Shown: in pieces, positions 3,001 to 60,685 of the stretch
How positions within the stretch are numbered: the stretch's first letter is position 1
Layout of the letters: each line of letters opens with the position of its first letter
Origin: an uncultured virus (IMG/VR IMGVR_UViG_3300043568_000902)
Lineage: Duplodnaviria; Heunggongvirae; Uroviricota; Caudoviricetes
DNA: 60,685 nt
Reading direction: 5' to 3' (one strand)
Virus record (IMG/VR): IMGVR_UViG_3300043568_000902
The notes under the pieces: model-generated
Seen by the model: the letters and a program-made list of their open reading frames with translations, nothing else
What the model was told of the DNA's origin: nothing
Database searches by the model: none
Translations under genes and position numbers: made by a program

Positions 3001-6000
3001 AATAAGGTTAAAGCTAAATGGAATTCATTAAGTGAAAGCCAAAAGCTAAAGACTTCTAATAACTATACAAAGCTTGTAAACTTTGAGAAGAGCTTGGATA
3101 AGTTAATGGAGAAAAAGAAGCAGGATCTTCTTGATGAAATGGGATGGAGCTACGATGATAAAGGTGTACCAACTGGCCCACTAGATAAGCTATTTAATTT
3201 CATTGAGAGACAATTAACTAAACAAGATATTGCGGACCATCAACTTGACTTCTTACAAGTAACAAAGTCTGGTAAACTCAAGCATTCCCTAGATATATCC
3301 TTAGCTGCTGCCCAGATTGAAAAGGTATTAATCTCTATAGTAAATAAAAGATTAATTAAACAGAAGGTATTAGGAGAAGCATTGATTCAAGTATCTGGTG
3401 CTGGTTATACAAACCGTGAATTCTTTAATGAAAACAAAGATGCTCCACTTGAAACACGCCTTAAAGTACTTGGAACTAACGACTTACCTTTTTATACACC
3501 AGGTAAAGCAGCTAAAGTAAAAATTGCGTTGCAAGGTAAATTCTTAAACTTATTAAGATTGCCTGAGGTAAATGCAATGGTGAGAGAAAATTTAGATAAA
3601 GGAGAACCGCTTACACATTTGCAAGCACTTAACAAGCTTATCAAAACTGATGAGTGGTTAAATGAGGGTGATAATAGAGCAATGGTTTCTATGGCTGCAG
3701 TACGTATTCCAGTACAAGGTCTAAACTCTATGGAGGCTTTTGAAGTATATGAGTTCTTACCAGAAGGTGGTAATCAAATTATACTTCCTGCAGAGATTGT
3801 AGCTAAGTCCGGAGGTGACTTTGACATTGATAAGCTTACGTCATTTATGCCTGATATTGAGGTAAATGAAAATGGTGACGTGGTCCTTAAAGATACCCCG
3901 GAAAATGAAGTATTGCGTAACATGACTGATATTATCACAATGCCTGAAAACTTTGTGGATCTTATCACACCTAACGCAACAGATATTCTTTCACCTCTTG
4001 CTAAAGAACTAGCATCAAAAGTTAGACCTTATGATCCATTGCAAAATGTATTTGGTGAAAGAGGTGATAACATTAGCGGAACTAGAATATTTGAGATAGA
4101 ATATAATATATATAAGCACGGATCTAATAATATCGGTAAGAAGACATTGGGTCAAGGTGCCGTAGATAATACTTACAACGTTATCTTTAATACAGTAGGT
4201 GCTTACTTAGAGCCAGAGTACCTAGCTGGTAATAGAACAAAATTTAAGAGACGTCAAGAGATATATCTAAACCACAACACTCTAGATGTAAATGATGAAA
4301 AAGCAATTTCATTATCTAACATCTATGACGCAGATGGTGTAAATAAAATATCTGAAGTTATTTCCCAGCTTATCAATGGTTGGGTGGATATCGCTAGAGA
4401 TCCTTGGATCTTTGATATTCAAGGTAACAACTTTGTTGCGCCGTCATTATTATTAATGATTCAAGCTGGTGTACCAATTGCAGATGCAGTATACTTTGCA
4501 TCACAACCTATTGTTAGAGAGTACATTTCTCAGCAGAAGAAAGCAAGATCAGCATTTGCTAATGCATTGGGTATCAATTTAGATAACCCTAACTTCTATA
4601 GATCTGAAGCTAGAAAAACTATGTTAAAGAATTTTCCTCAAACTGAAGAATTGTTTAGCGTAAATAAAAAAACTGGCGAAGAGTATATAAAACCTGAGTC
4701 AATGTACACAGGCATGACAGAGTTTGCTGAGCCAAAGAGAGATGAAATCTTTAACTTAGAGTACTTTAAAGACAATGTTACTACACCAGTAAGCTATAAT
4801 GAAAATGAGTTAGCACTGTTGTTACACTTTATGGACATTGAAGATATGTCTAAGGTAATTACATCTGTTAAGCGGACAACTAACTTTGATACAGCTACAT
4901 CTTCCAGCCTATTCCAAAATGCTCAAAGATCTGCAAACGCAGAAATTCTTGCATCAGATGGTAGAATGGGTAAAGACATTGTATCTAAAATTCTTAATGA
5001 GTCTTCTATATCGAGTTTTGTAGTTACGGATTTTATGCGTGATGTATACAAAAACTTATTTAGCGTTAGAGACTCAAAGACCATGAACGATTTTATCTTA
5101 GGTAAACTAGCTCGTGGTATCAATAAGGATGTTGAAGATACTTTTGATGATATAGACATGTTTGTGAGCCAGTTTAGAAATGACACTTTAATGTTCATGT
5201 TCCAAAACTATGTTAGAAACCTAGATCTAGATTCAGTTAAAACCTATAAGAGTGCGGTTGTGGATAGCTATGCCATGAGCGTAAGACCTACAATTGAGTC
5301 TCCAATTGGTGTTTTTGTAAAAGAGGGTGTGGTTAAACGTAAAATAAAAGGTGTAAGTAAAGATGTATTACGCCCAGTAGTTTACGTTGATAGAGCAAGA
5401 TTAGCTGAGGAGTATGGAAACTTACAATCAGGTCAAGACTTGTTTACAGAAGACATGCCTATTGCACCAGTTAAAAAGAAAATGTTCCAAAACATCCGTG
5501 AGTATGCACGCTTTGTTATGGAGCGTGAGTACTTGAGATTTGTATTAAAGCCTGAGAATGTTGTAACAGATTCAAAGTTTGTTGAATATGCTAACCAGTT
5601 TGCTGAAGAAGGTGCATATGAAAATGAAAGTGAACAAGACTTTGAAGACCGTGTATCAGTAGATGCTTATGAGCACACACTTAGAGACATGGCTTTTGAA
5701 AATACTTTTAACCATTACTATATGTTTAAGAGTAAGAAGAACTATGCTCAAAGATTAGCCGATATCAAAAAGACTTATCCTGAGTTAGAGGAGGCATTCC
5801 CTGTATTAAAATTCTTGAGCTACGATAAGAGCAAGAAAGGTGAATACATTATCAAGTTTAGAACATCTAAGATTGATGTTGATAGGGTGAATAAGTTCTA
5901 CGAGGATATCACAGACTTGTCTAACGCTAGCACACTTCACGGTATTCTTGCAAATGTTCCATCTAATGAAGTAAATGATATTGCAAAGTTCTTCGAAAAC

Positions 6001-6873
6001 TTACCAATGTATACAATGTTTACTACAGGATTTGCTACTAAAGGTGAGTATGCAATAGCTCAGATAATGCCAAACAAGAGACTTACCGGAGTATTAACTA
6101 ACATGTTAAACTACTTCGATAAGGAAAAGCTAATGACTTGGGATCTATTTAACAACTACTTCAAGAAGTTCGTTAATGTAAACGGCTTTAAGAATAGTGC
6201 TAATAGATATAAAATCAAAAACTATACTTTAGACCAACCTTTGTGGAAAGCGTCTAAGAATAAAAAAGCTGAATTATTTGGAGAGTATGGTAACATATCT
6301 ACAGGAAGAGATAACTTTGGTAAACCCGTTTATTCTTCAACATTTGAAGAATCAAATAAGTTATTAGAAGATATCACCACCCTTTTAAATAATAGAAGCA
6401 ACTATGCCTTTATTTTTAACGGGGCAACTAAAGCTTTGGGTATTCCAAAAAGTGGTTCCGATGGTGTATTAGCTGACCCAAATCTTGGAGCATCTAATGT
6501 ATTTGGTATTGCTGCAGCTAAAACATATCAAAAAGTACCATCTGCCCGCATGACGGATGACACATATGATGACAACGTAGAGGTTATAGAAAAATCTTTA
6601 AATGATCTTGAAGATTACTTGAAGTCTGAAAAGCTTAAACCTTTCTGGAATTCATATGGCTACGGTCAATATATGATTGGTGCAGATCAGTATGGTGAAA
6701 ATATAGATGCAACTAAAGCAAGAGCCCCTAAAACTTTTGTATATTTGTCTAAGAGGCTTTATGAAAAGTTTGGCTATGTTAATCCAAACTACAACATTAC
6801 AAAGGAAGGCCGATCTTTTGTGAAAGTAAGTACTAAAGATGTTATTCAAAAAATTAAAGAGTGTTTAAAATAA
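1..6873 (+). CDS. Virion-associated two-barrel RNA polymerase (crAss-like), 5'-truncated by the window
   Basis: Frame is open from base 1, so the Met at 232 is internal. Contains RIPVQGLNSM and the catalytic KSGGDFDIDKL (DxDxD at 3817-3831) typical of crAss-like virion RNAPs; >2290 aa. Confidence 0.9.
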   Translation, partial: RKSKFIEFGKRYDKVVTLFEDIEDPNFKKGREGYDRKGNEASLTELANEKVIYLIRSLHGINPDGSEVLNSLGFNSLMDFPMAWNRLAKTLDGANSVQEMYRRLDSSKEDYPFFQELLLKLGNPDTQMDAYSQSMWTSFLQAFGLSRVPLIAMVVDQSDIKEKDEDGKVSVVDVEFSAVVGGASVADKKVGRDWSDHFKTTTSRFIKQDVEGNNYLDVPELLSKYPNGVSKTDRWEFFKDIGLNFSNKDKIRQELNSLRHNPAITFFNRIIDLYNAYEEGRVEKPIIIRDIKDIVAERDYKNFDVVSLATDYNTLQSIEAKHSDDYSDFMVLNAAGDAQYEFMLNSTLTQMIKELNDAPSYNELISNPEMNHLSSDRNPWASINPKSNRKRLVTLYDMFDMAAPGGPKRALNPEYGSTEKVSIDINNMAGVSFTINGISNTGITAADADEVTKRLSDFHVSTLYGLPMGTTPADKSTILMYHLSNRKYYVNPKYFVSKEYSDRGNLDAYQIMLGYLEGELDRIYQVSNLDANSPEALVPVGKKKYGETGKEFVIFADMLSKPTKDALMAIPDEYKQNLRDYLDTEEGATLNRDIYRDIMKKYFPAKVAEFDSRLREAEYIDNNIHRKIRDLAGNRRLSKADTREAAVKAHVINSFIHNVETVLLYHGDPALYNMVKEDFQKRNAGINSTGTFPRIDSAMLNYINNVAFGKDTRGKDKVRYSNSSWYTGQPVKKVFTNQMRSAVLQDVDTQSLYLNILKEKLRESLLTSPAYKNKKLSASQINDIIDKKLEPYTEMKEGDGQGWITFDAYKALSIELDSWSDQQEVLYRKILNREYVSPSAIIEFFPVLKMQYWGPLANKGLPLTAFHKFSIAPLVPSTIENTDLEVLQNKLVEQGFEYALFSSGSKVSTITPDGVPDKFYKDASDAKNRDLAITEEDYKFTPNDIFLKYFKKQVEIAPTYKGKVIFSTQLRKLIETGLMEMGIPVDFKPEESYDQRKAKWNKVKAKWNSLSESQKLKTSNNYTKLVNFEKSLDKLMEKKKQDLLDEMGWSYDDKGVPTGPLDKLFNFIERQLTKQDIADHQLDFLQVTKSGKLKHSLDISLAAAQIEKVLISIVNKRLIKQKVLGEALIQVSGAGYTNREFFNENKDAPLETRLKVLGTNDLPFYTPGKAAKVKIALQGKFLNLLRLPEVNAMVRENLDKGEPLTHLQALNKLIKTDEWLNEGDNRAMVSMAAVRIPVQGLNSMEAFEVYEFLPEGGNQIILPAEIVAKSGGDFDIDKLTSFMPDIEVNENGDVVLKDTPENEVLRNMTDIITMPENFVDLITPNATDILSPLAKELASKVRPYDPLQNVFGERGDNISGTRIFEIEYNIYKHGSNNIGKKTLGQGAVDNTYNVIFNTVGAYLEPEYLAGNRTKFKRRQEIYLNHNTLDVNDEKAISLSNIYDADGVNKISEVISQLINGWVDIARDPWIFDIQGNNFVAPSLLLMIQAGVPIADAVYFASQPIVREYISQQKKARSAFANALGINLDNPNFYRSEARKTMLKNFPQTEELFSVNKKTGEEYIKPESMYTGMTEFAEPKRDEIFNLEYFKDNVTTPVSYNENELALLLHFMDIEDMSKVITSVKRTTNFDTATSSSLFQNAQRSANAEILASDGRMGKDIVSKILNESSISSFVVTDFMRDVYKNLFSVRDSKTMNDFILGKLARGINKDVEDTFDDIDMFVSQFRNDTLMFMFQNYVRNLDLDSVKTYKSAVVDSYAMSVRPTIESPIGVFVKEGVVKRKIKGVSKDVLRPVVYVDRARLAEEYGNLQSGQDLFTEDMPIAPVKKKMFQNIREYARFVMEREYLRFVLKPENVVTDSKFVEYANQFAEEGAYENESEQDFEDRVSVDAYEHTLRDMAFENTFNHYYMFKSKKNYAQRLADIKKTYPELEEAFPVLKFLSYDKSKKGEYIIKFRTSKIDVDRVNKFYEDITDLSNASTLHGILANVPSNEVNDIAKFFENLPMYTMFTTGFATKGEYAIAQIMPNKRLTGVLTNMLNYFDKEKLMTWDLFNNYFKKFVNVNGFKNSANRYKIKNYTLDQPLWKASKNKKAELFGEYGNISTGRDNFGKPVYSSTFEESNKLLEDITTLLNNRSNYAFIFNGATKALGIPKSGSDGVLADPNLGASNVFGIAAAKTYQKVPSARMTDDTYDDNVEVIEKSLNDLEDYLKSEKLKPFWNSYGYGQYMIGADQYGENIDATKARAPKTFVYLSKRLYEKFGYVNPNYNITKEGRSFVKVSTKDVIQKIKECLK

Positions 6874-42213: not shown

Positions 42214-42469
42214 CTTGACCTCCGTAAGTTTCGTTATAGTAGTCCTCAAATGACTTTTGCTCCACCTTAAATTCATCACCCATATCTTCTACTCTACTAC
42301 TAAACCAAGTTTCTTCGTGTTGCTCCTTCTCCATTTGCCTGGCTTGGTTTTCAATTTCTATTTTTCTTTTGTCGAACTCTAATATGCTTATTCCTTCAAC
42401 ATCATACTCATATTCAAGTTTATCGAGTTGTTCAATGAACCATTCAACCGCAGTTTGTTTCTTTTCCAT
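42203..42469 (-). CDS. MEKKQTAV-family small protein
   Basis: Paralog; a 26-bp stretch at its 3' end is identical to the 30619 gene. Confidence 0.75.
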   Translation of the reverse strand: MEKKQTAVEWFIEQLDKLEYEYDVEGISILEFDKRKIEIENQARQMEKEQHEETWFSSRVEDMGDEFKVEQKSFEDYYNETYGGQDEN

Positions 42470-42482
42470 AGTTATTTAGTTT

Positions 42483-42686
42483 TTAAAGTTTTTCTATTTC
42501 TTGTTTTACTTCTTTCCAATACTTTTTTAACACTCCTGTTGTTGTGCCTTCTAAAAGTCCTGTGTTAATTATCTCATCTACTGCTATCAAGGCACATTGC
42601 TTAGCTCCTTCAGAATCACATACATCTGTCCAATGATGTACCGTCATTCTTTTTAATAATTCCTTTGCTTTTTCTTTTGGTGTCAT
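42483..42686 (-). CDS. MTPKEKA-family small protein
   Basis: MTPKEKAKEL..AKQCALIAVDEI..YW.EVKQEIEKL. Confidence 0.75.
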   Translation of the reverse strand: MTPKEKAKELLKRMTVHHWTDVCDSEGAKQCALIAVDEIINTGLLEGTTTGVLKKYWKEVKQEIEKL

Positions 42687-42705
42687 AATTATTTAGTTTT
42701 AGAGT

Positions 42706-42801
42706 TTAATATTTGTTCTTTGTGTTCTCCCTAATAAGTCTTAATTCAATAATCATTATGACTTGTAATAAGGTTGGCACCCAAAAATAAATGTGTTCCA
42801 T
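42706..42801 (-). CDS. 31-aa hydrophobic peptide
   Basis: Manually translated; preceded by the conserved AAAACTAAATAACTATG leader. Confidence 0.5.
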   Translation of the reverse strand: MEHIYFWVPTLLQVIMIIELRLIRENTKNKY

Positions 42802-42803
42802 AG

Positions 42804-42965
42804 TTATTTAGTTTTAAAGTTCATATAATTAATTTGCGCTTTACAATCTTCAAGACTTCCTTGAAATAGCATAAGACCATCAGGAGTTACTATTTCTAAA
42901 GAGTAAATGTTATTTGCAACAGCTACGCAAGAATAGCTTATATAGTCCTTCTCTTGTGGTGTCAT
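42804..42965 (-). CDS. 53-aa hypothetical protein
   Basis: Manually translated; same conserved leader. Confidence 0.55.
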   Translation of the reverse strand: MTPQEKDYISYSCVAVANNIYSLEIVTPDGLMLFQGSLEDCKAQINYMNFKTK

Positions 42966-43247
42966 AGTTATTTAGTTTTAAAGTTTGTTTAATATTTTAG
43001 CTGACCTATCAACACAGGCTCTAGCTATTTTCTGCAACACGGTTACCGTGAGCATTGATAATCTTTTACTAAGATTGTTCATGTTTAAAGTTTTTAGTTT
43101 TTACAACATTTACATTTACCTCTACCTGCATGACCTTTCATTTTGTCTTTAGGCATCCATACCCCAATGTAGATTAAAAAGAATATGGGTATGCACATTA
43201 GCATACATAATAAAGCATAACCTATTGTTTCCATAGTTGTTTAATTA

Positions 43248-50738: not shown

Positions 50739-52142
50739 TTAGTCCACCTTGATACAAGAGTATCTTGGCTTACCAATAGTTTCCATCATAACACTGTAAG
50801 GACTCATATCCTTACCGCCCAAGATACTTGTTAGTATACTTGGACTATACCCGCTAACAAGGGCAGTGTTTGGTGTGTTAGCCTTCACAGGTACATTACC
50901 AAGGCGACCGTTAACATTCCAAAAGACAATACCTGGCATTTCATAGCCTGCTTCAGCGTACATAGCCTTGATTACATCAAAGTTATTACGATTACCACAG
51001 GCTTCATCAAACTCCATGTCACTGATAATCAGTAACTTAGTAGGCATGTCTTCTTGTAATACTTTACCATCTTTTGCACGGTTAAGTAACACATGAAATG
51101 TTGCTTCAAGGTTAGTATTATATCCCCATTCCGCTTTACGCAAGTTATGTACTCTATCAGATAGAGTATCACCTTGTATCTTGTGGAACACTGGGGTACC
51201 ACTAAACGTCAACACAAGATCCTTGAAAGGACCTTCATTGCGCTCAGAGATATATAAGCCTAATCCTATAGATACATCCATAGGTTGGCCCGTCATACTA
51301 CCTGATACATCGCACACAGGCAAGATTCTTTCCTTGCACCCTTCCATATAATTAGGTAAAGACTTCCACATAGCATCATATGCTGTTGTGTTATTTCTTT
51401 CATCCCAATCAGGAAACATAACCTTGTTAACAAGATCACTTGGGAACAATACAGAAGCATTCATCTTCTCCTTGCCTTCCATAACATCGGTAATATAAGA
51501 ATCATATCTTACACCATCATGTTTACGGAATGCACCTACATATCTCTTACCTGCAACAGAGGGTACTTGTGAATAAGGAATAGATTCCCACTCATTAGCA
51601 CACATCTTTTGCTCCACGGTATTAGACATAGAAGTCAATCTTCTGCGGAATGTACCTGCTGATACACCGAGATACTTATGCATACCTACAAACCATTCTC
51701 CCTTGCGTGGGAACCACTTGGCCAATAGATTAGCATTCTCATTCTCATCTAGTTGATGCTTCAACCAGTTAAGAGTATCCTCGCTTGGTCTCTCAATGAT
51801 AAAGACATCCTTCCAATACCCAAATGTTGGTATATGTATGGCAACCTGATCATAGGCTTCACCATCCAGTGTCATAAGATGTCTCATGATCACTTGGAAG
51901 AATCTCTTCTCACCTGCACCACCTCGTGCATCACGTGCCCAAAATAGAATCTTAAGAGCCACATTCTTATCTTCACGATAAGCGCGTGTAAAAGCTTTTA
52001 AGATATCTTCTTCAGACATAAAACGGCTCGCACCTGCTATGAAAAACAGGTCAAGACACTCCATACCTGCAGTACTATGCGTAACTGCGCCGTTATTGGT
52101 AAGAGCATCATTAGAAAACATTGCGTTGGTAAAATTGTCCAT
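50739..52142 (-). CDS. DUF2828 / TROVE (Ro60)-like protein with C-terminal vWA
   Basis: T.NGA..ST..CLDLFF, RD.RGG.GE+, GYWKD, AKW.PR, VE.KMC.N.W, MIDAS DVSGSM, SDMEFD, FWNV. Confidence 0.88.
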   Translation of the reverse strand: MDNFTNAMFSNDALTNNGAVTHSTAGMECLDLFFIAGASRFMSEEDILKAFTRAYREDKNVALKILFWARDARGGAGEKRFFQVIMRHLMTLDGEAYDQVAIHIPTFGYWKDVFIIERPSEDTLNWLKHQLDENENANLLAKWFPRKGEWFVGMHKYLGVSAGTFRRRLTSMSNTVEQKMCANEWESIPYSQVPSVAGKRYVGAFRKHDGVRYDSYITDVMEGKEKMNASVLFPSDLVNKVMFPDWDERNNTTAYDAMWKSLPNYMEGCKERILPVCDVSGSMTGQPMDVSIGLGLYISERNEGPFKDLVLTFSGTPVFHKIQGDTLSDRVHNLRKAEWGYNTNLEATFHVLLNRAKDGKVLQEDMPTKLLIISDMEFDEACGNRNNFDVIKAMYAEAGYEMPGIVFWNVNGRLGNVPVKANTPNTALVSGYSPSILTSILGGKDMSPYSVMMETIGKPRYSCIKVD

Positions 52143-52211
52143 TGCTTTAAAGGTTTTTGGTTAAACAAATTAATGAGATTGGCAGGCCACGAGTATCACT
52201 ACTTGGCTTTT

Positions 52212-52588
52212 GCACATACTACAGAATGAAGAGAACCAAACAACTAACTTGTTGTGGCCTACCTTTCTCGTGAGACTTTTATTGTCTCGTGCATTGTATT
52301 TGTTTTTTACAGTGCAGATTCATTCTTTAATGTGCTAAATGCTCTTATGTTAAACAGAATAGTTGTTTAACCTAGTTTAATTGTGTAGTTAAATAGTGCT
52401 GAACTATCCTTCACTAACATAAGAGCAGGTTTGATTATCTAATATCCTAGATTTAGAAGACACGGCAACGAAGCCCTGGTAGAATTGTTATCTACATCTT
52501 CAGATAATCAGTGGTTGTAAAGATACAGAATGCGTTTTAACTTACCATAGTTTTATTTATAGTGCTGTATACATTCTTCCCTTTACAA
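52212..52588 (-). ncRNA. Array of three repeated structured RNAs (Y-RNA-like candidates)
   Basis: Units 52212-52335, 52340-52427, 52515-52588 share AGRATR..C(A/T)GCACT...YATTCTGT in nested stems; G-U pairs work on the - strand. Confidence 0.7.
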
Positions 52589-52590
52589 TA

Positions 52591-52806
52591 TCAATAGTCG
52601 TCTTCGTCTAACATCTCGTTAAACTCGTCTTCCATAAAGTTGGCGGTGATCCCATCCACCCTACTAATAGGGTTAATAGGAAGACCAAGAACCAGTGCTT
52701 CATAGTAATTAATTACCTGAATAACACTGATTCCTGATAATACTTTGCCGTCAAGTAAGTTAGTAAACTTCTCAGAGGTCTTTATCTTAGCAAGATTAGC
52801 GTTCAT
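52591..52806 (-). CDS. Hypothetical protein
   Basis: 71-aa ORF. Confidence 0.6.
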   Translation of the reverse strand: MNANLAKIKTSEKFTNLLDGKVLSGISVIQVINYYEALVLGLPINPISRVDGITANFMEDEFNEMLDEDDY

Positions 52807-52807
52807 C

Positions 52808-53170
52808 TTAATTGGTTAAAAGAGTGTATAAATACTCATTGTCTTGCCAATTGAACTTAAACTTTAAGGATAAGTCATTAGCAATTTGATCAATGCTGGT
52901 ATCACCTGCATCCATACGTTCTCTACCTAACAAATAAGCGTCGTGCATTTGAGGATATACATCCCCTAAACAGGTATAGTAACCACGTTCATATGCTTCT
53001 ACACGATTATTAACCATTACTTGCTCAAAATCTGTGTCAATAGGGCCATCTTCAATAAGATTACATTCTCTTATTATAGATTTATTACGAAACACTTCAC
53101 CGCTTGATATTGTGGCAATACATATTACCACGGCTACAAGCATGCCTACCGCAAAGGATTTAATGTCCAT
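52808..53170 (-). CDS. Membrane-anchored hypothetical protein
   Basis: N-terminal TM. Confidence 0.65.
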   Translation of the reverse strand: MDIKSFAVGMLVAVVICIATISSGEVFRNKSIIRECNLIEDGPIDTDFEQVMVNNRVEAYERGYYTCLGDVYPQMHDAYLLGRERMDAGDTSIDQIANDLSLKFKFNWQDNEYLYTLLTN

Positions 53171-53243
53171 AGTTATAAGGTTTAAGTTAATACAAGTTAT
53201 ATAGGACAGCCGGGATAAAAATCGTAAAATCCCGGCTTCCTAC

Positions 53244-53432
53244 CTATTCCAACTCACCAGCTTGACAAAGGTTATCATCATAGATAAAGACACCAGTCTC
53301 TATATACTCCAACACCTCACCTTCGCAAGCATACTCAATAACAGAACTCTCAGCAGTATGTATGGTATACAAACCATCTACCCTCTCAACCTTACCGGTT
53401 AAAAGGTACATTAACAAAATCAATTTACTCAT
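53244..53432 (-). CDS. Hypothetical protein
   Basis: 62-aa ORF with A-rich leader. Confidence 0.55.
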   Translation of the reverse strand: MSKLILLMYLLTGKVERVDGLYTIHTAESSVIEYACEGEVLEYIETGVFIYDDNLCQAGELE

Positions 53433-53663
53433 TGTATAAGTATTAAAGGGTTAAACACACTAATAACAAATGGCCAGGTTCTCACCCCGGCCTTATCCCC
53501 CATTCTGCTATATCACAAGACAGACCCAGGGACACATAAAGCCTTGGTACTACACCTAAATTCCCGTTTATGTAGTGTTAGCTTCATTAATTGACAATAG
53601 GGGAACAAGCCGCCCAATTCTACTTATTGTTTAGTCAATCAAATCTACCATAGGAACCAAAGA

Positions 53664-53800
53664 CTCTGTACCACTCTGCATTCAGTTATAATAGTGTATT
53701 AGCTTCCAACGAGGTCTTACCTCTTCAGTAGAAGGTCTGCGAAATACACTATTACAACTGCTTACCCTTGTGAAGTAAGTTATGATGCATTAATACAAAG
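53664..53800 (-). ncRNA. Twister-like self-cleaving ribozyme with long P5
   Basis: P1 CUUUGUAU/GUACAGAG, UAA, P2 UGCA/UGCA, P4 CUUAC/GUAAG, L4 UUCACAAGG, 3' GAGUG giving a CAC:GUG pseudoknot. Confidence 0.72.
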
Positions 53801-53954
53801 GGACCGTGCTCGCAAGCATCATTGTCCCTTTAGCTATCTAGTACGCGTCCATATGCGTACCCAATGTACAATATCACAGATTGTTAAGAATACCTGAGTG
53901 GGGTGTTAGCTCTTACACTAACACCCTCATACTCAAGTAGTTAGCCCACCTTTG

Positions 53955-54341
53955 TTAAAGGTCAGCTACATCCTTCTTCTCAACCTTCTTGGCTCCAGTT
54001 GCAGCACCTCTGCTACCCCCAGCTACCATCTTCGCAGCAAGCTTATCGGCTAAGCTTTGCCCGAAATTACCACCGTATTGCTCTGCTAAAGCAACCTGCA
54101 TATCCATCTCTGTTGTGTCAGGGATGATACGCCCGTCCTGCGTGGTTAAACTTGGACAACTCTCCCCTACATAACGTGTAGAGAAGAACAACGGAGCACC
54201 ATTGTCATCTTCTACAAGATAACTACCGGCTTGCTCGCGGTATTGGTCAAGCTCCTCGGCTTTACCTTTCACGGTGTATACAAACACCAACTTGCCAGTT
54301 TCTTTTTTGCGGTACTGGCGCACCTTCTCAAACTTTGCCAT
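53955..54341 (-). CDS. Early protein, paralog of 54790-55209
   Basis: Shared FVY.V.G..E.LD.Y...G......NG.PL.F..R..GESC and QVALAEQYGGNFGQSLAD+LA.K. Confidence 0.8.
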   Translation of the reverse strand: MAKFEKVRQYRKKETGKLVFVYTVKGKAEELDQYREQAGSYLVEDDNGAPLFFSTRYVGESCPSLTTQDGRIIPDTTEMDMQVALAEQYGGNFGQSLADKLAAKMVAGGSRGAATGAKKVEKKDVADL

Positions 54342-54416
54342 AGGCTTTAATTGATTGGTTTTTAATTAGTTAACATTACCTTAGCTCCATTACCCCATAT
54401 GACTACGGGAAATAAT

Positions 54417-54508
54417 CGAGCGTAGCGAAGATTATGGGTATATAGAAATTAACGAGCGAAGCGAGTAAGCGGAGCGAAGCGGAGCTAAAAAAAGCGAGCG
54501 AAGCGAGC
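54417..54508 (+). repeat. Cluster of GAGCG(A/T)AGCG mini-hairpin repeats
   Basis: CGAGCGTAGCGA, CGAGCGAAGCGAG, GCGGAGCGAAGCGGAGC, GCGAGCGAAGCGAGC; more copies at 55276-55290, 55302-55316 and ~56384-56399. Confidence 0.85.
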
Positions 54509-54630
54509 TAAGAATAAGATATGGGTATATAGGAATCCAAGGGTAAAAACTTTACAACTTAATGATAATGAGCGTGTTGGTCACGCGGCCCCGTGGGAAA
54601 ACATCCATACTAGGATTCCAAGAATGCGTG

Positions 54631-54660
54631 CATCCGTGTACATCCGTGTACATACGTGTA
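54631..54660. repeat. 10-bp tandem repeat x3
   Basis: CATCCGTGTA CATCCGTGTA CATACGTGTA. Confidence 0.85.
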
Positions 54661-54789
54661 TACTTGCTTCCTATATATATGTACACACTCACAATAGCAT
54701 CCTAGTGCTATAGCAAAAAGGGTATATAGAACTTAAACGAAGTTTAAAACCCACGAGTGTGAACTCGTGGGTGTAGGTGCAGGTCCTGC

Positions 54790-55209
54790 TTACAGGTCAC
54801 CTGGCTTCTTCTTGGAAGAAGTCTTGGTGTCTGTTGCAGGACGAGCAGTTGGGGTTTGCGACTTGGTCACAAGTTTGCTGGCCAATCGGTCAGCTAAACT
54901 TTGGCCAAAGTTGCCCCCATACTGCTCCGCAAGTGCGACTTGTATGTCAAGCGCGGAAGTGTCTGGGTACCAGGCACTTTCGTCTTGCTTGACAACAAGC
55001 TCGCACGACTCGCCGGCGAATCTTTGCGTAAAGTACAATGGTTCACCATTGTCACTTTCGCGATAGAATTCGCCCTGCGTTTCGGCGTAATGGTCCAAAG
55101 ATTCCTTTGGGCCACTTACGGCGTAAACGAAGGTTAGGCGAGGGCGCGCACCGGCGATCTTACTCGCTTTGCGATAAGAGCGCTGAAAAGATAGTTTTAA
55201 ATTTTTCAT
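54790..55209 (-). CDS. Early protein, paralog of 53955-54341
   Basis: 139 aa; near-identical QVALAEQYGGNFGQSLAD block. Confidence 0.8.
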   Translation of the reverse strand: MKNLKLSFQRSYRKASKIAGARPRLTFVYAVSGPKESLDHYAETQGEFYRESDNGEPLYFTQRFAGESCELVVKQDESAWYPDTSALDIQVALAEQYGGNFGQSLADRLASKLVTKSQTPTARPATDTKTSSKKKPGDL

Positions 55210-55232
55210 AAAATTTGAAATTAGATTTTCAA

Positions 55233-55273
55233 GGTATAATGGGTATTAAATAAAAAAACTTGCGAAGCAAGTT
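55233..55273 (-). promoter_or_regulatory. Putative phage-RNAP early promoter module (GGGTAT + hairpin on template strand)
   Basis: GTATAATGGGTATTAAA then AACTTGC-GAA-GCAAGTT; the module recurs before each early gene. Confidence 0.6.
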
Positions 55274-55365
55274 CCGCGAGCGAAGCGAGCACAACGCACG
55301 CGCGAGCGCAGCGAGCAGCCGTTGCTTGCGCAAAGGAAGAGCCGAAGCTCTTCCGCGCAAAGACT

Positions 55366-55692
55366 TTAAATTTGATTAAAGTCAAGCGTACCACGCCATT
55401 CTTGTAAAGACATGGTTTCGGTACGCGACCACGCTTTGGGGTAATCTTTCCTAAAGGTTACCTCATCGGACCATTTATTATAGCCTTGGAACAAGAGCGA
55501 ATAATGGTCAAGCGTGTCGTCATCTTTCTTGATGGTATGATGCCTATGATAACGCGGTTCAAGATCCTCATCTTGAAGTGGGTTAACATAAGTACCATCA
55601 AGAATAGCCATAGCAACCAATGGGTTGCTGTGTGCGTTGATGACGTCTAATAAATCTGCGAACGCGATTTGAATTTTGATTGGTTCTACCAT
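55366..55692 (-). CDS. Early hypothetical protein
   Basis: Likely start MVEPIK at 55692. Confidence 0.7.
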   Translation of the reverse strand: MVEPIKIQIAFADLLDVINAHSNPLVAMAILDGTYVNPLQDEDLEPRYHRHHTIKKDDDTLDHYSLLFQGYNKWSDEVTFRKDYPKAWSRTETMSLQEWRGTLDFNQI

Positions 55693-55726
55693 GATAAAAT
55701 TTAAATTAAGTGAAACTGATTTATTA

Positions 55727-55774
55727 GTATAATGGGTATTAAAGTAAAAAAACAACAAGAGCCAAAGCTCTTGT
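55727..55774 (-). promoter_or_regulatory. Putative early promoter module
   Basis: GTATAATGGGTATTAAA (17 bp identical to the 55234 copy) plus ACAAGAGC-CAAA-GCTCTTGT hairpin. Confidence 0.6.
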
Positions 55775-55802
55775 GTTTAGTACCCGAAAGGCAAGGATGT
55801 AA

Positions 55803-55976
55803 TCAATTTTCATTGATTACAAACTTGTCGTCTTCGGTAAGTACAAGCAGTGCGCGCTCAATAGCGCGTACTTCTTGTGCAACTTCCCGAAGTTCGGGAA
55901 AGGCCTTGCCCAATCCCTTGGGCAAAGTTATTTCGCGATCGATATGTAGGATCGCGAAAGGACGTGGTCTTTTCAT
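55803..55976 (-). CDS. 57-aa early protein
   Basis: Manually translated: MKRPRPFAILHIDREITLPKGLGKAFPELREVAQEVRAIERALLVLTEDDKFVINEN; preceded by a GGGTAT module. Confidence 0.65.
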   Translation of the reverse strand: MKRPRPFAILHIDREITLPKGLGKAFPELREVAQEVRAIERALLVLTEDDKFVINEN

Positions 55977-56009
55977 AGTAAATCGATTTTATGAGATTTG
56001 CTATGATAT

Positions 56010-56053
56010 TGGGTATTATGTTAAAAAAGAAAAACAACTCCGAAGAGTTGTTT
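56010..56053 (-). promoter_or_regulatory. Putative early promoter module
   Basis: TGGGTATT, A-run, AAACAACTC-CGAA-GAGTTGTTT hairpin. Confidence 0.55.
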
Positions 56054-56069
56054 TGCTTAATGAAGAAGG

Positions 56070-56252
56070 TTAAGCCTTCTTCATATCTCGTAGTTGATAG
56101 TATATCAAGTACGAGATGAATGCTGCGCAGAAGATGAGGAAGCCATTTACGTATGGCTTACCACTTATGTGCGGCAACATGTTAGTAATGAAGATTAGCG
56201 CAATGGCATCAAGCCATGCGATGATTGTAATGAATAACATGAGATTTTTCAT
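56070..56252 (-). CDS. 60-aa 2-TM early membrane protein
   Basis: Start MKNLML at 56252; two hydrophobic helices. Confidence 0.65.
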   Translation of the reverse strand: MKNLMLFITIIAWLDAIALIFITNMLPHISGKPYVNGFLIFCAAFISYLIYYQLRDMKKA

Positions 56253-56281
56253 AATGATTAAATAATTATTATGAAAAATAC

Positions 56282-56310
56282 TGGGTATCTTACACAAGCG
56301 TAGCTTGTGT
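56282..56310 (-). promoter_or_regulatory. Putative early promoter module
   Basis: TGGGTATCT plus ACACAAGC-GTA-GCTTGTGT hairpin. Confidence 0.55.
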
Positions 56311-56409
56311 TCCAAGCGAGCGAGCCCCAGCTCGCGAGCCCAGCGAGCACTGTGTCTTGCACAGCAAGCACATGTGTGAGCACGCGAGCGCAGCGAGCGC
56401 ACCAAGCAT

Positions 56410-57300
56410 TCAGGCTATGTTACTCATAGCCAATAACATTTTCTTTGTAGAAAATATTATTCCTGGTGCCTGCCTAATAGGCCATACCCCTTCTAAGAAT
56501 TTGACGGGGGTGGCCCCCAAGCGCGAACGCACCGGGGGGATGCTTGGTATACATCCCTTACATCGCCTCCCACATTAAATTTCCCCTACCACCATCCCCC
56601 GGGGGGTGTCCCCACCTAACCTTACTACCGGGGGTAGGTTGATTGTCTTATTCCCTAGGGGGGTATATGTAGGAGAACCATAAGTGTCAAGTTTATTGCA
56701 CAAAAAACTGGACATTCCCCCCTATATGCCCCTACATATAAATGTGGGGTAATACGGTAATACTATATGCAAGTGCATGCAAAATCTGGAAAAATTCATG
56801 CAAAATTATAGGGGGTAATTCGAAGAACTTCCGAGTTTGGCACCTTTTCGTTACGGAGTTTGGCATCTATAAGTCGCCAATACTCCTAAAATTTTCCAGT
56901 AATAGCGGATTAGCGCCAGGGGGTTGGGGATTATTTTCCACTAAAAGCCTGATTCTGTAGATTATTTTCCACAATGCTTGTCGCAAAAGTTTACTATACT
57001 TGCGACTAAGTACCGACCAAGTAACCGTACAAGTACCCCTCCAGTACCCATCAAGCTTGTCACAAAAGTTTAACATATTTGTGACAGATGTGGTTTATAA
57101 CATCTATCTCATATCAATGGTGCCAGGTTTATCCTGACATCTATACTATAAAACGTACCCGGAGAGGTACGGAGTATACTCTCTATACATGATAATGTCC
57201 CTTACAGGGTATAAAAATGAGGTTTTTTGTTTCTTATAAACCACATTATAGTATGGTATACTATGCATCTCGGTACAAAACTATGGCTTTTGCATATTAA
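56410..57300. other. Long non-coding region with G/C tracts and many imperfect palindromes (candidate genome terminus/origin)
   Basis: No credible ORF; sits between the early - block and the late + block. Confidence 0.5.
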
Positions 57301-57306
57301 AACATG

Positions 57307-57873
57307 TTATAATGTGGTTTGCCTAGCTCTTTTTCCAATTACTTTTGTCTTAAGATCTACCGCTTTAAGTGCCAATACACATTTCTGAATAACAGCTAGA
57401 TTTACATTATCTCCCTTTTCCAATAGAGATAGTGTAGATCTGGATACTCCCATTAATTCGGATAGCTGTTGTTGGGTTAACTTTCTACATAATCTTTCTC
57501 TTTTAAGGATAGAAGACATACTATGTATAATTCTAAATAAGTCATCAAATGCTTTTGCATCATCGTCTGACCTTGTTTCTACTAGCTCTTCTGGCATTAG
57601 CATTATATTAAGCAAGCTGGGATTAATGTTGTAGTAGTAATCTATCCAGTATCTTTCTCTATCTGGTAAATCATTAATATCTTTAACTTCTTCTATGATG
57701 TCTATCTTAGGGTAAAGCCAATTCTCCTCCAGCATTTTAACCCAGTCATTAACGTGTGAAGAATGTGAGTTAGTTAAATGTTGTAGGGGTCTTTTTTCAC
57801 CTACTGTGCTTTTGCCTATGTACTGATAGACATCGTTTCTTGGATCTCGTAGTCCGTAGATTATGTTTTTCAT
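57307..57873 (-). CDS. GIY-YIG nuclease fused to XRE-type HTH
   Basis: IYGL.DPR...YIGKS..R...H..E.YWI..N; LTQQQLSELMGVSRSTLSLLEKG. TACCTTTG box at 57898-57905. Confidence 0.8.
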   Translation of the reverse strand: MKNIIYGLRDPRNDVYQYIGKSTVGEKRPLQHLTNSHSSHVNDWVKMLEENWLYPKIDIIEEVKDINDLPDRERYWIDYYYNINPSLLNIMLMPEELVETRSDDDAKAFDDLFRIIHSMSSILKRERLCRKLTQQQLSELMGVSRSTLSLLEKGDNVNLAVIQKCVLALKAVDLKTKVIGKRARQTTL

Positions 57874-58012
57874 ATTTAGTATGTATTAGATATAATACAA
57901 AGGTATGAAATATAATACACATAAACAACACCTCTCGTAACATTTTTATATATATTTTTGTTACGAACCATACTTTAGTGTGGTAACAATTTTACGCTAT
58001 ATTTGTTACGAG

Positions 58013-58213
58013 ATGCTACAGTTTATTACCTACACCCTACGGTGGATATCTTCTAACCTAGCTATTCCTTTCTGGACAGTTGGGCACATCCACCTTAGTA
58101 TTAATGTCTACGAGGATCTGGTAGAGATAGCTTCTTCTATAGGTATGAACCTTATAGTAGCTGTAGGATTCTATATGGAATGGCGAGAGCATAAAAAAAA
58201 TTCTTGCCCGTAA
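58013..58213 (+). CDS. Small membrane protein
   Basis: Start MLQFIT after a TATATTTG box (57998-58005); two hydrophobic segments. Confidence 0.6.
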   Translation: MLQFITYTLRWISSNLAIPFWTVGHIHLSINVYEDLVEIASSIGMNLIVAVGFYMEWREHKKNSCP

Positions 58214-58254
58214 CAAATTCTTGTATATATTTGTCACAACTAAACCAATGAACT

Positions 58255-58545
58255 ATGTCATTATTTAAACAACTACGTGGTAAACGCGTAATGATTCAGA
58301 AGCCTGAGTCTGAGAATAAATCCTTAATTGAACTTACTCCAGAAGTAGAAGCACAACTTGAGAAAGAGGCTATTGCAAAATGGACTCGTCTTAAAGTTTA
58401 TGCTGTTGGTACAGATGTTACCGATGTTGTTGCTGGAGATGAGGTGTACATTACACCAGGTGTTTTAGCAGCAGCTGAGATTTTTAAAGTTGAAGAGGAA
58501 GTGTTTATCATTGTACCGGATCACGCGGTAGCAGTTATATACTAA
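58255..58545 (+). CDS. groES: GroES-like co-chaperonin
   Basis: L.G.RV.I..P..V.AVG.DV..V..GDEV; TATATTTG box at 58226-58233. Confidence 0.7.
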   Translation: MSLFKQLRGKRVMIQKPESENKSLIELTPEVEAQLEKEAIAKWTRLKVYAVGTDVTDVVAGDEVYITPGVLAAAEIFKVEEEVFIIVPDHAVAVIY

Positions 58546-58763
58546 TTATTTCGGCCTAAAGCTTGGATGCGGAAGTGGGTTTTCTCCTGCTCTGCTGCCA
58601 TGATGGCCATGATACCACGGAGTTCCTCGTAAGTAAGTTCTACTACAAGTTCTTCTTCACTATCTAGCACTTGTATTACTCGCGGGTCTATATATATGTT
58701 AGCCTCAACCTGTTCATCAGAGTGAGGTACTTGATATGTTCCCGCTTTAATATAAGTTGCCAT
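58542..58763 (-). CDS. Hypothetical protein
   Basis: 73-aa ORF. Confidence 0.6.
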   Translation of the reverse strand: MATYIKAGTYQVPHSDEQVEANIYIDPRVIQVLDSEEELVVELTYEELRGIMAIMAAEQEKTHFRIQALGRNN

Positions 58764-58766
58764 GTG

Positions 58767-59768
58767 TTATGATACTACTCCGTCAATGATCATCTTGTTA
58801 TCTACTGAGAAGGTACCATCCTTCTCTAGTTTAACTACCGCAAAACCGTGTACCCAATCACTGTGCCCTTTCATATATTCAGGATAAAGTTCACATAGGC
58901 ATCCCGTTGACCAAGCTCCTTGGATATTGTTGTTAATGTCACGGGTTATAAACTCTGATTTTCTATGGAAGTGGCCGCAGATAGTACTAGCTTTTGCTTT
59001 AAGGTATAGGTTCCTTGCAGGGTTTACTGTACCACCACCTAGATATTCATGACCGTGTATAATGTTTAACTTACCTGCTTTGATTGTAGAGTTAGAGTCT
59101 ATGAGTTGTATTTGATTTTCTCCAAATCTTAGGAGCATCTTTAATTCAAACTCATCCATACCAATCCACTCTGGTGCCTTAATCCTTAGCCACTTCTCAA
59201 GTCTATCCTCATGGTTACCAATCTTGTAATAGATTCTAGCTTTAGGAAATGCTGTACGCAAAGCTTTCATAAACCATCTACCTTGTTCAAGTTCTACTTG
59301 CATCTTAGGTTTAGAAGGGTCCTTGTCAAACCGTGACAGCTGGTAGAAATCTAAGACATCCCCGTTAAGAAGTATTGTATTAACTTCTTCCTTGATTCCG
59401 TATTGAATAGCACTACCAAGAGCTTCTTCATCATGATAAGGGAAGTGAATATCAGAAAGAATAAGAATATGATTGGCATCATCTGGCAATACAAAGTCAT
59501 TAGGTCCAGACTTATATGATTTTGGTATGTCATTGAATGGTGCATAGTTGTATGTTATGGGTCTTTGTAACTCAGGGTCTACATTCTTCCTTGTTTCTTT
59601 ACCACCTAGTCCTGAATGCCGCTTCAGTAGTGAGCGCGCGTGATCTACACTATTGAAGTGTAATTCATTTTCGGCGAGCATAATTTTAGCAATTGTTTGG
59701 ATTGGAAGCTTAGGATACTTCTTTAGATACTGTTTAGCGAGTTTGCCAGTAGCGGTAATCTTATTCAT
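58767..59768 (-). CDS. Calcineurin-like metallophosphoesterase
   Basis: SDIH, NGDVLD, GNHE, HGH, GHFH motifs. Confidence 0.88.
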   Translation of the reverse strand: MNKITATGKLAKQYLKKYPKLPIQTIAKIMLAENELHFNSVDHARSLLKRHSGLGGKETRKNVDPELQRPITYNYAPFNDIPKSYKSGPNDFVLPDDANHILILSDIHFPYHDEEALGSAIQYGIKEEVNTILLNGDVLDFYQLSRFDKDPSKPKMQVELEQGRWFMKALRTAFPKARIYYKIGNHEDRLEKWLRIKAPEWIGMDEFELKMLLRFGENQIQLIDSNSTIKAGKLNIIHGHEYLGGGTVNPARNLYLKAKASTICGHFHRKSEFITRDINNNIQGAWSTGCLCELYPEYMKGHSDWVHGFAVVKLEKDGTFSVDNKMIIDGVVS

Positions 59769-59926
59769 AAGATGTGTATATCTTACGCAAGATTAAGGAA
59801 AATATTTTAATAATCAGCACTTTAGCTAAAAATATTTTTTTTTATATCCTATAGATAACTAACTTTGGATAATAACAAATTATTTCTTATATTAGATATA
59901 TACTAATCCATTAATCAAATCAAGTC

Positions 59927-60145
59927 ATGGAACTAAATTTCACACCGGAAGAAGTAGCAAAGCATATTAGCAATGCTTATGATAGCGTTACTCTTATTAC
60001 AGAGCTAACTGCTAAAGAGTCTCTAACAGAAGAAGAGACTGAAATGCTCTCACGTAATGTGGGACATATTCATATCATGCTAGAAAAAGCATGGTTCACT
60101 GAAGGGCTTACACCTGAACAAAAAACAGAGTTGGAGGCTATATGA
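59927..60145 (+). CDS. Hypothetical protein
   Basis: 72-aa ORF; TAACTTTG at 59860-59867. Confidence 0.65.
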   Translation: MELNFTPEEVAKHISNAYDSVTLITELTAKESLTEEETEMLSRNVGHIHIMLEKAWFTEGLTPEQKTELEAI

Positions 60146-60276
60146 ATAAAGAACAAGCATTAGAAGTTTTAAATCAAGCACTAGATCAAGCGTTTAAAAA
60201 AGGCGCTTACTCACTACAAGACGCTGGATTTATTACAAAGGCTTTAGAGACTTTGTTTCCTCAAGAGAATAATTAA
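60142..60276 (+). CDS. 44-aa hypothetical protein
   Basis: Manually translated: MNKEQALEVLNQALDQAFKKG...; ATGA coupling. Confidence 0.6.
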   Translation: MNKEQALEVLNQALDQAFKKGAYSLQDAGFITKALETLFPQENN

Positions 60277-60296
60277 CAAACTAAACTTATAATAAA

Positions 60297-60685
60297 ATGG
60301 ATATTTTAAACTGGCTCTATCTTGCCAAAAATAAATTTGTACGTGATCAACCGGGTAGTCTTCAAGACTTAATGATCTTTGGTTCTAAAGTTGGATTTAC
60401 CAAACGTGGCGATAAGTACCAAAACTACGCAATGGAAATTGGTGAATTTGCTCAAATATTACCTCCAGGTCCAGCTGGTCCTCAAGGAGTTGCTGGTGTT
60501 GCTGGCCCTGCTGGGGCACCAGGTCCTGTTGGTCCTGCTGGTTTAAACTGGCAAGGAGCATGGTCTGCTTTAGGAACTTATGTAATAGATGACGCAGTAG
60601 GTTACGGTGGAGCATCATGGTTCTGTATTGCTAACGTAGGTCCTACCGCTACTGTACCTTCAGCGGATCCTACAAAATGGGCATT
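60297..60685 (+). CDS. Collagen-like fibre protein with CBM5/12-like module, 3'-truncated
   Basis: MDILNWLYL..., (GXY)n GPAGPQGVAG..GPVGPAG, then W.G.W....Y...D.V.YGG.SW.C. Confidence 0.8.
   Translation, partial: MDILNWLYLAKNKFVRDQPGSLQDLMIFGSKVGFTKRGDKYQNYAMEIGEFAQILPPGPAGPQGVAGVAGPAGAPGPVGPAGLNWQGAWSALGTYVIDDAVGYGGASWFCIANVGPTATVPSADPTKWA

Follow-up and report, generated by a model that had tools for sequence, protein, structure and literature searches.

In a distant crAss-like phage, hairpin-packed small genes behind a conserved box and mini-hairpin head the early gene block

The virion RNA polymerase (vRNAP) of the crAss-like phage phi14:2, gp66, works well on DNA that is single-stranded or denatured but poorly on native duplex, and the report on it assigns the whole replicative module, an early block, to this enzyme and describes no common motif upstream of the early transcripts (bioRxiv 10.1101/2020.03.07.982082). 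The vRNAP of phage N4 uses a promoter that is a template-strand hairpin with a sheared G:A loop, and on single-stranded templates its RNA:DNA hybrids remain unless EcoSSB recycles the template (PMC4496689). Mini-hairpins of the form d(GCGNAGC) are extraordinarily stable, N4 using GCGGAGC (PMC13037366). Here we describe a locus of about 2 kilobases (kb) in virus record IMGVR_UViG_3300043568_000902 of IMG/VR, in which small genes of the - strand, each behind a conserved box, are packed with hairpins. The whole stretch of 60,685 nucleotides (nt) that was analysed is called the window, and all positions refer to it.

The source is an uncultured lake-water virus, a distant crAss-like phage, and the stretch is present in contigs of 20 lake-water DNA runs. 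The first open reading frame (ORF) of the window, a giant one at 1-6873, gave weak tblastn matches to crAss-type proteins; with g066/gp66 of phi14:2, the catalytic vRNAP subunit, it shares 25% identity over 12% of the query (E 3e-7). Rightward genes occupy the first 18 kb or so, and the genes between about 57 and 18 kb point leftward. The hairpin block lies at the upstream end of the latter, beside the divergent junction, and forms the head of this phage's early, replication-side genes.

All of the hairpins named in an earlier note on this DNA are present in the sequence. They include a nested stem (54933-54952/54987-55006) enclosing a core at 54954-54982 with the loop GTA, a stem at 54778-54789/54836-54847 with 54803-54823 inside it, the stems 55026-55042/55045-55061, the hairpin 55437-55465, a perfect 12-nt pair (55526-55537/55593-55604), and five hairpins across an ORF of 57 residues (55798-55821, 55841-55880, 55884-55900, 55904-55927 and 55931-55959). 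Using a strand-neutral hairpin finder, which scores G.T and A.C alike, 24 strong hairpins were found in 54721-56420, compared to 1.77 +/- 1.26 (maximum 6) in 300 dinucleotide shuffles. Twelve fall within the four coding sequences, where 300 codon-preserving shuffles, keeping protein and codon usage, gave 2.79 +/- 1.39 (maximum 7). The density is 11.6 hairpins per kb in the region and 1.2-1.7 in the remaining window. Many of the loops had been described as GAA, GTA or GCA triloops; on the + strand this holds for four of the seven triloops (GTA three times, GAA once), but GCA does not occur among them and the other 17 of the 24 loops are longer.

Folding gave the same result. In a scan by 120-nt windows with DNA folding parameters, each window being compared with 20 dinucleotide shuffles, mean z-scores in the region (17 windows) were -4.53 on the + strand and -4.74 on the - strand, versus -0.71 and -0.76 in the 488 others (Mann-Whitney p 1e-8 and 7e-8, respectively). 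Folded as one DNA strand with a pair span of at most 150 nt, the + strand of the region is 74% paired at -447.5 kcal/mol, its shuffles reach 56 +/- 2% and -195 +/- 6 kcal/mol, and four ordinary stretches of 1.7 kb reach 45-52% and -111 to -151 kcal/mol. Gene by gene, with 25 codon-preserving shuffles each and RNA parameters, sense and antisense z-scores were -12.6/-17.6 for p139, -6.2/-5.6 for p108, -4.0/-4.3 for p57 and -3.0/-3.8 for p60, the genes being named by length in residues. The genes p128, p62, p120, p71 and a neighbouring gene of 467 residues are only moderately folded, with the sense strand the more stable in five of five. The hairpin excess in and between the four - strand genes is confirmed: in sliding-window folding and in codon-preserving shuffling, both part of a check that had been proposed, the region lies far beyond shuffles, coding sequences included. 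A search of the whole window with Rfam 15 returned no match at gathering score, and in 52100-58300 the sole match at E <= 1 was cspA, with 17 bits against a threshold of 78.

The block is an array of single-gene cassettes, carrying p60, p57, p108, p139 and p128, together with two units without an ORF, those headed by P5 and P6 (Table 1). The box reads ATACCCA(T/A)TAT, and within 54435-56288 it occurs seven times on the - strand (P1-P7) and never on the + strand; the ATG follows after 30-41 nt at P1-P4 and after 94 nt at P7. At P2-P4 the order on the - strand is GC-rich hairpin, T-run, box, ATG. A canonical hairpin with T-run ends the units at P2-P4, and a weaker one at P5. The arrangement of an intrinsic terminator, a GC-rich stem and T-run on the transcribed-sense strand, is present at three - strand sites, 55774-55755, 56054-56031 and 55275-55255. 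A terminator scan of 51000-60685 gave 14 sites versus 5.7 +/- 2.4 expected and none on the + strand of the block, where the runs adjoining hairpins are A-runs. GCGNAGC words number 11 on the + strand and 2 on the - strand in the region, and 14 and 4 in the whole window; one of them, GCGAAGC, stands 14 nt upstream of P7. Repeats of the form GCGAGC-GNA-GCGAGC lie upstream of P1, P4 and P7 and run on downstream of P6, and there the template strand can pair with tandem G.A in the stem, where the sense strand has pyrimidine mismatches.

Table 1. Features of the hairpin block and its flanks, 53,955-56,398, listed in the direction of - strand transcription (template = + strand).
Feature	Position	Strand	Remarks
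GCGAGC-N3-GCGAGC repeats	56316..56398	+	Upstream of first box; template reading: C-GNA-G loop, tandem G.A in stem
Hairpin ACACAAGC-GTA-GCTTGTGT	56292..56310	+	3 nt upstream (- sense) of box P1; no T-run after
Box P1 (ATACCCA)	56282..56288	-	30 nt before ATG of 60-residue gene
p60, membrane-like ORF of 60 residues	56070..56252	-	83% identical homologue in related locus L027
Terminator, sense-strand C(UUCG)G loop then T-run	56027..56058	-	Terminator scan
Box P2	56010..56016	-	34 nt before ATG of 57-residue gene
p57, ORF of 57 residues spanned by five hairpins	55803..55976	-	Homologues behind boxes in L071, L072, L076
Terminator hairpin and T-run	55755..55774	-	Terminator scan
Box P3	55733..55739	-	41 nt before ATG of 108-residue gene
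p108, ORF of 108 residues	55366..55692	-	Conserved hairpins, covariation in 15 sequences
GCGAGC-GAA/GCA-GCGAGC repeats and hairpin GGAAGAGC-CGAA-GCTCTTCC (sense loop UUCG)	55276..55354	+	
Hairpin AACTTGC-TTC-GCAAGTT (template C-GAA-G) and T-run	55250..55273	-	Terminator and promoter mini-hairpin combined
Box P4	55240..55246	-	31 nt before ATG of 139-residue gene
p139, ORF of 139 residues	54790..55209	-	Most folded gene; paralogue of p128
Perfect 10-bp hairpin, weak T-run	54749..54772	-	After p139 stop codon
Boxes P5 (54719-54725), P6 (54522-54528), P7 (54435-54441)	54435..54725	-	
GCGAGC/GCGGAGC repeats	54410-54512		With boxes P5-P7
p128, ORF of 128 residues	53955..54341	-	Behind P7; p139 paralogue; moderately folded only

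A DNA similarity search of the region against 50,697 phage records gave no match, and the nearest record, G001, is an 18.7-kb fragment from which the region is absent. Relatives were reached through the 467-residue neighbour gene and the 108-residue protein; the 139-residue protein, used as a query in viral contigs, led to no relative by that route. In relatives the order is terminator, T-run, TTGC-TNC-GCAA, 8 nt, and ATAC..C.TAT(C). Across 15 loci, GC-NNN-GC stands upstream of the box in 49 of 64 distinct contexts, its loop reads GNA on the template strand in 36 of these 49, and the gap to the box is 8-10 nt in 43. Antisense matches to the box were limited to 0-2 per locus in 12 metagenomic loci.

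The small ORFs of the block are, judged by their conservation, real genes: p139 and p128 are paralogues whose paired copies recur in many related contigs, and p108 is intact in 14 further sequences. No Pfam or PHROG family was found for p60, p57, p108, p139 or p128. A predicted model of p139 (predicted local distance difference test score 75.8, predicted template modelling score 0.60) had no clear fold match in Foldseek, with a best E-value of 0.46. The best VIA-align Z was 3.7, and the single-stranded DNA-binding protein of Pf3, at Z 3.6 (root-mean-square deviation 3.5, 65 residues aligned), was tied with ribosomal and RimM beta-barrels, too weak a match for any assignment. Cassettes of box, small gene, terminator and mini-hairpin vary in order and combination among the related loci L065-L079 and 54.3-56.4 kb of the window, with some ten families of small genes, none of known function, and this reordering suggests exchange at the conserved promoter and terminator joints. 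Integron-like attC cassettes, suggested by the shuffling and by hairpins at the cassette borders, were rejected for now, as hairpins occur throughout the ORFs and every cassette carries a promoter of its own. No recombinase was seen among the ORFs scanned, a scan that did not include a systematic integrase search.

Close among the described systems are the early promoters P1-P3 of coliphage N4, which the injected vRNAP gp50 reads. As in N4, the locus has a small hairpin on the template strand, consisting of a GC-rich heptamer with a G-N-A loop of 3 nt and placed ahead of the first genes, the phage bringing in an RNA polymerase of its own, and the problem of RNA:DNA hybrids on single-stranded DNA would be shared; the N4 heptamer is GCGGAGC, and those found here are GCGAAGC, GCGTAGC, GCGCAGC and GCGGAGC. 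In N4-type promoters the centre of the hairpin lies about 11 nt ahead of the start of transcription, and gyrase drives extrusion of the hairpin, which host SSB stabilises. Template hairpins of the N4 type, GC-GNA-GC, are present, but a T7-like single-subunit RNA polymerase is not: the polymerase here is of the crAss two-barrel type, which makes the locus an analogue and not a member of that group. In addition, a separate conserved box follows the hairpin here, and the sections consulted of the N4 review (PMC4496689) describe three promoters and no hairpin-packed coding sequence. With phi14:2 the locus shares the crAss-like affiliation, the injected polymerase, a replication-side early block read one way and, as reported for phi14:2, abundant early non-coding RNAs near the head of the block. 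However, the phi14:2 report gives no early motif, whereas here box and mini-hairpin recur seven times in the window and in 64 contexts in relatives. The leading regions of plasmids with Frpo/ssi sequences (PMC11541004) likewise hold small, first-entering genes of one orientation, there expressed from folded single-stranded DNA. Unlike this locus, the plasmid DNA is known to enter single-stranded, and a long hairpin whose stem restores the -35 and -10 elements stands in for a double-stranded promoter of the host. Here the hairpins are short, with stems of 7-18 base pairs, and occupy coding sequence, and sigma-70-like sites are not in excess (27 versus 27.6 +/- 5.6 expected, in a scan without Bacteroidota-type promoters). 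The known kind is the template-hairpin promoter of an injected polymerase, and the hairpin-packed coding sequence is the extra feature here.

That extra feature follows the boxes. From 15 loci we collected every ORF of at least 40 codons whose start follows a box by no more than about 100 nt, giving 72 cassette ORFs, or 41 after removal of those at least 90% identical, and compared them with 28 ordinary ORFs of 90-190 codons from 18-50.7 kb of the window, using 10 codon-preserving shuffles. With RNA parameters the median z-scores were -4.7 (sense) and -7.3 (antisense) for cassettes, and -2.2 and -1.4 for controls (Mann-Whitney 4e-6 and 2e-10), although the 41 cassettes represent only about ten gene families, so that p-values overstate the independence of the cases. 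DNA parameters gave -6.2 and -8.2 for the cassettes. Coding sequences behind the boxes are hairpin-dense and ordinary genes of the phage are not, which is new. The literature searched contained no account of whole coding sequences whose hairpins are maintained through compensatory changes, with a preference for the template strand, and none of the box-and-hairpin arrays.

Comparison with relatives shows that the hairpins are under selection. Homologues of p108 share 58-80% amino-acid identity but 74-86% nucleotide identity, and the differences between the window copy and three homologues have only a weak excess at third positions (e.g. 14, 10 and 22 at positions 1, 2 and 3), so silent sites are constrained. 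In a codon alignment of 15 p108 sequences, the 108 pairs in the union of both strands' consensus structures are Watson-Crick in 1394 of 1620 cells (86%). Compensatory change, with both sides altered and still paired, is seen in 24 of the 108, compared to 2-7 in six controls in which the 3' partner was shifted by 1-3 columns. Eight orthologues of p139, only 54-60% identical in nucleotides to the window copy, keep 82% of cells Watson-Crick (22-27% in shifted controls) and show 19 compensatory pairs (5-12 when shifted). The covariation that had been proposed as a check is thus found in related phages beyond shifted controls and, with the higher identity of DNA than of protein and the weak third-position excess, bears out the suggestion that these proteins are under a dual coding and folding constraint. 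Genome-scale overlap of coding and folding, with synonymous constraint and covariation, is familiar from single-stranded RNA phages. There, as here, coding sequence is selected for dense local pairing; however, the folded molecule is an RNA genome, whereas in this double-stranded DNA phage the feature covers about 2 kb and the antisense strand folds at least equally well.

The argument first made for the + strand was that imperfect pairs are mostly G.T on that strand and would be A.C mismatches in the mRNA. The count is as claimed, with 12 G.T and 1 A.C on the + strand of the region, and so is the opposite asymmetry at 52.15-53.95 kb (1 G.T and 6 A.C). As evidence it is largely codon composition. 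Chance hairpins have G.T on the + strand in 53% of cases under the dinucleotide null and in 68.5% under the codon-preserving null, the latter share being high because the mRNAs are C-rich; 12 of 13 gives p = 0.0035 against the former, and the nine of ten lying wholly within coding sequence give p = 0.13 against the latter. With a codon-preserving null of that size, the wobble count was rejected as a decisive test of strand. The frequency of C at third positions is 0.24-0.33 in the block genes and 0.09-0.15 in four ordinary ORFs, and C-rich third positions would also be expected from selection for stems on either strand, since a G at codon position 1 needs a C.

By folding there is a modest preference for the template strand, alongside strong folding of the mRNA. 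The + strand is the better folder beyond composition, in the whole region and in the cassettes. Over the whole region the difference between + and - strand is -55.4 kcal/mol, compared to -12.5 +/- 6.2 in 12 shuffles and -12.7 +/- 5.1 in a second set of 12. The antisense z-score is lower than the sense z-score in 31 of 41 cassettes versus 13 of 28 controls (Wilcoxon for cassettes 4e-5 with RNA parameters and 0.001 with DNA parameters). In 88 distinct hairpins of cassette coding sequences, G.T on the template outnumbers A.C by 77 to 18, and among 26 triloops, many of them homologous copies, GNA occurs nine times on the template and never on the sense strand. The GNA mini-hairpins, the advantage with DNA parameters, the lack of + strand terminators and the near lack of + strand boxes are indirect pointers to DNA as the folded + strand. 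An abundant + strand antisense RNA, acting for example in later shut-off of the first genes, would also account for a + strand that folds best, a wobble advantage being most natural for RNA, and boxes P3 and P4 contain TATAAT when read on the + strand. We give such an RNA a very small chance, as the box is set 30-41 nt upstream of - strand ATGs and is nearly always sense in relatives, the hairpins on the + strand adjoin A-runs and no terminators, the + strand advantage is equal with DNA parameters, and GNA triloops are of DNA type and not RNA type.

The reading we prefer, tentatively and at somewhat less than an even chance, is that an injected polymerase reads the cassettes from a locally unpaired template, whose self-pairing frees the RNA. 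Boxes with mini-hairpins would be the promoters of the injected crAss-type RNA polymerase, in the manner of N4 although the enzyme is unrelated. The template would be locally unpaired, extruded or unwound, while the first genes are read, a single-stranded virion end not being required. Template hairpins would re-form behind the polymerase, so freeing the transcript and shielding the unpaired DNA, and folding of the purine-poor RNA would help its release from the template. Elsewhere the job of release and shielding is done by the non-template strand or by a single-stranded DNA-binding protein, and the need would be greatest for the very first genes, before any phage factor; that packing is confined to the first 2 kb fits this. 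That the cassettes are altogether built for transcription from an unpaired template, with intrastrand pairing taking the place of the non-template strand in both RNA release and shielding, seems to us rather unlikely. If true, it would amount to a novel organisation of the transcription unit, and the early promoter of crAss-type virion polymerases would be identified; template folding, if true, would explain how an enzyme that prefers single-stranded DNA expresses the first genes of a double-stranded genome. A sharply delimited candidate promoter, with a mini-hairpin, a gap of 8-10 nt and the box, emerges from the locus and its relatives, and the hairpin-packed first genes may be a clue to how the injected crAss-like RNA polymerase reads DNA.

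Several observations weigh against the preferred reading, and many of them would suit hairpins that act only in the mRNA, the template advantage being a by-product of codon choice. The first transcripts, which would arise ahead of any phage protection and possibly uncoupled from ribosomes, would then be folded to withstand RNases of the host or RNA-guided defence, or to adjust translation. The bias between strands is modest and, as noted, drawn from few gene families, and the mRNA strand is itself folded far beyond chance, as the sense z-score of p139 and a z-score of about -23 for the region indicate. Signals of RNA type, C(UUCG)G loops and U-runs, mark the terminators on the sense strand. 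In alignments the G.T shares, 68.6% for p108 and 72% for p139, are near the codon-composition null, and C-ending codons could reflect translational selection or pairing with G at position 1. Relatives with other early modules, such as 17:0 and 10:1, have stems with wobble on the sense strand, as do the neighbouring early elements of the window, and a folded template is therefore not a general rule of the early region; the stems of 17:0, 10:1 and 52.2-53.9 kb of the window behave like ordinary structured RNAs. We nevertheless regard action in mRNA alone as possible but doubtful. The antisense strand wins in 31 of 41 cassettes, against 13 of 28 ordinary ORFs, even when measured against composition-matched shuffles, and the mRNAs are poor in G (C exceeds G in 32 of 41 cassettes and in none of 28 controls; purine fraction 0.509 versus 0.567), the opposite of what favours RNA folding. 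Tolerance of G.U on the sense strand would also be expected, yet core helices show no excess of it (8 of 15 in p108 and 13 of 25 in p139).

The same helices, those predicted on both strands, count against template folding as well, with G.T and A.C at 7:8 in p108 and 12:13 in p139. This balance, with only Watson-Crick pairs conserved, would suit inverted repeats acting in duplex DNA, whether as cruciforms or as palindromes bound by proteins, which could stall the entering DNA, take up supercoils or provide sites of recombination in cassette shuffling, and cassettes are indeed shuffled among relatives at conserved promoter and terminator joints. However, most of the stems are short and imperfect, with loops of 3-8 nt, and are spread through coding sequence and not placed at the joints, a strand bias exists, and no recombinase was among the ORFs scanned; we consider action in the duplex highly unlikely. 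Further points tell against the preferred reading of an injected polymerase on an unpaired template. In the window the extended GNA hairpin stands only at P1 (GTA) and P4 (GAA), P2, P3 and P5 having other loops and P6 none. The hairpin packing is limited to about 2 kb, while the whole replicative module of phi14:2 is reported to be transcribed by its vRNAP, and none of the 23 runs listed as containing the stretch is an RNA run.

A stricter form, in which the + strand is single-stranded in the virion (as an overhang) or on entry, like the leading region of a conjugative plasmid, draws on the same template-strand evidence of cassettes, GNA triloops and folding energy, on the preference of phi14:2 gp66 for single-stranded DNA, and on the place of the block at the head of the early genes beside the divergent junction. 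We hold it to be most improbable. Contigs of four of four lake runs (X2, X6, X7 and X8) cover the block without difference; the longest, from X8, spans 51592-57628 and joins the block to both flanks, and those of the other three reach the 52-kb flank and the noncoding stretch. In relatives the contig ends are scattered, and the one record with direct terminal repeats by its classification stops some 5 kb downstream of the 467-residue gene and not here; contig ends of relatives permit no conclusion on the terminus, and Logan contigs cannot show ends, strand or expression. The template bias is also absent in relatives with other early modules. Of the interpretation offered in the earlier note, then, the dual constraint and the template bias with its N4-like signals are supported, but the terminal single-stranded + strand end is not: the contigs bridge the block, relatives' contigs end elsewhere, and no genome end was located.

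The neighbourhood of the block has features of its own. The 467-residue gene (50739-53950 area) carries DUF2828 and DUF7788, matches PHROG 850 ('RNA-binding protein'), and is preceded by noncoding stretches (52143-52590 and 53433-53954) and small ORFs. Hairpins of 52-54 kb favour G.U on the sense strand, 6 versus 1, and have no Rfam match. They may be structured early RNAs beside a gene for an RNA-binding protein, reminiscent of the non-coding RNAs that phi14:2 makes abundantly at early times.

Just upstream of the first box, 56421-57306 is noncoding over about 0.9 kb and is 82-87% conserved in L002, L006 and L027, though the small genes downstream differ in these relatives. It contains many short direct repeats and palindromes with G/C tracts such as TCCCCCGGGGGGT, and its role could be that of a leader, an origin or a packaging site. 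The adjoining ORF at 57307-57873, with GIY-YIG and helix-turn-helix domains, was found among relatives only in L003 (91% identical); in the others 57318 is joined directly to about 57969, bypassing the ORF, and in one lake contig, from run X8, 57268 is followed by 32 different letters and then 57967. The ORF has the look of a mobile insertion of a homing endonuclease, polymorphic in the population.

In all four runs the contig with the block (51.6-56.7 kb) has a higher word depth than flanking contigs, for example 32.2 versus 23 and 14.1 versus about 5, contig depth being a poor measure; sharing by co-occurring strains may be the cause. Within the leftward block, 42314-43100 is a repeated or hypervariable element, with depth spikes to 124 per bin versus 23 around it (run X2) and numerous alternative joints and loose ends in each of the four runs. 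At the far end of the window, an ORF on the + strand (60297-60683), open at the window end, has a collagen-like G-X-Y run (GPAGPQGVAGVAGPAGAPGPVGPAG) and probably encodes a fibre protein at the start of the rightward block.

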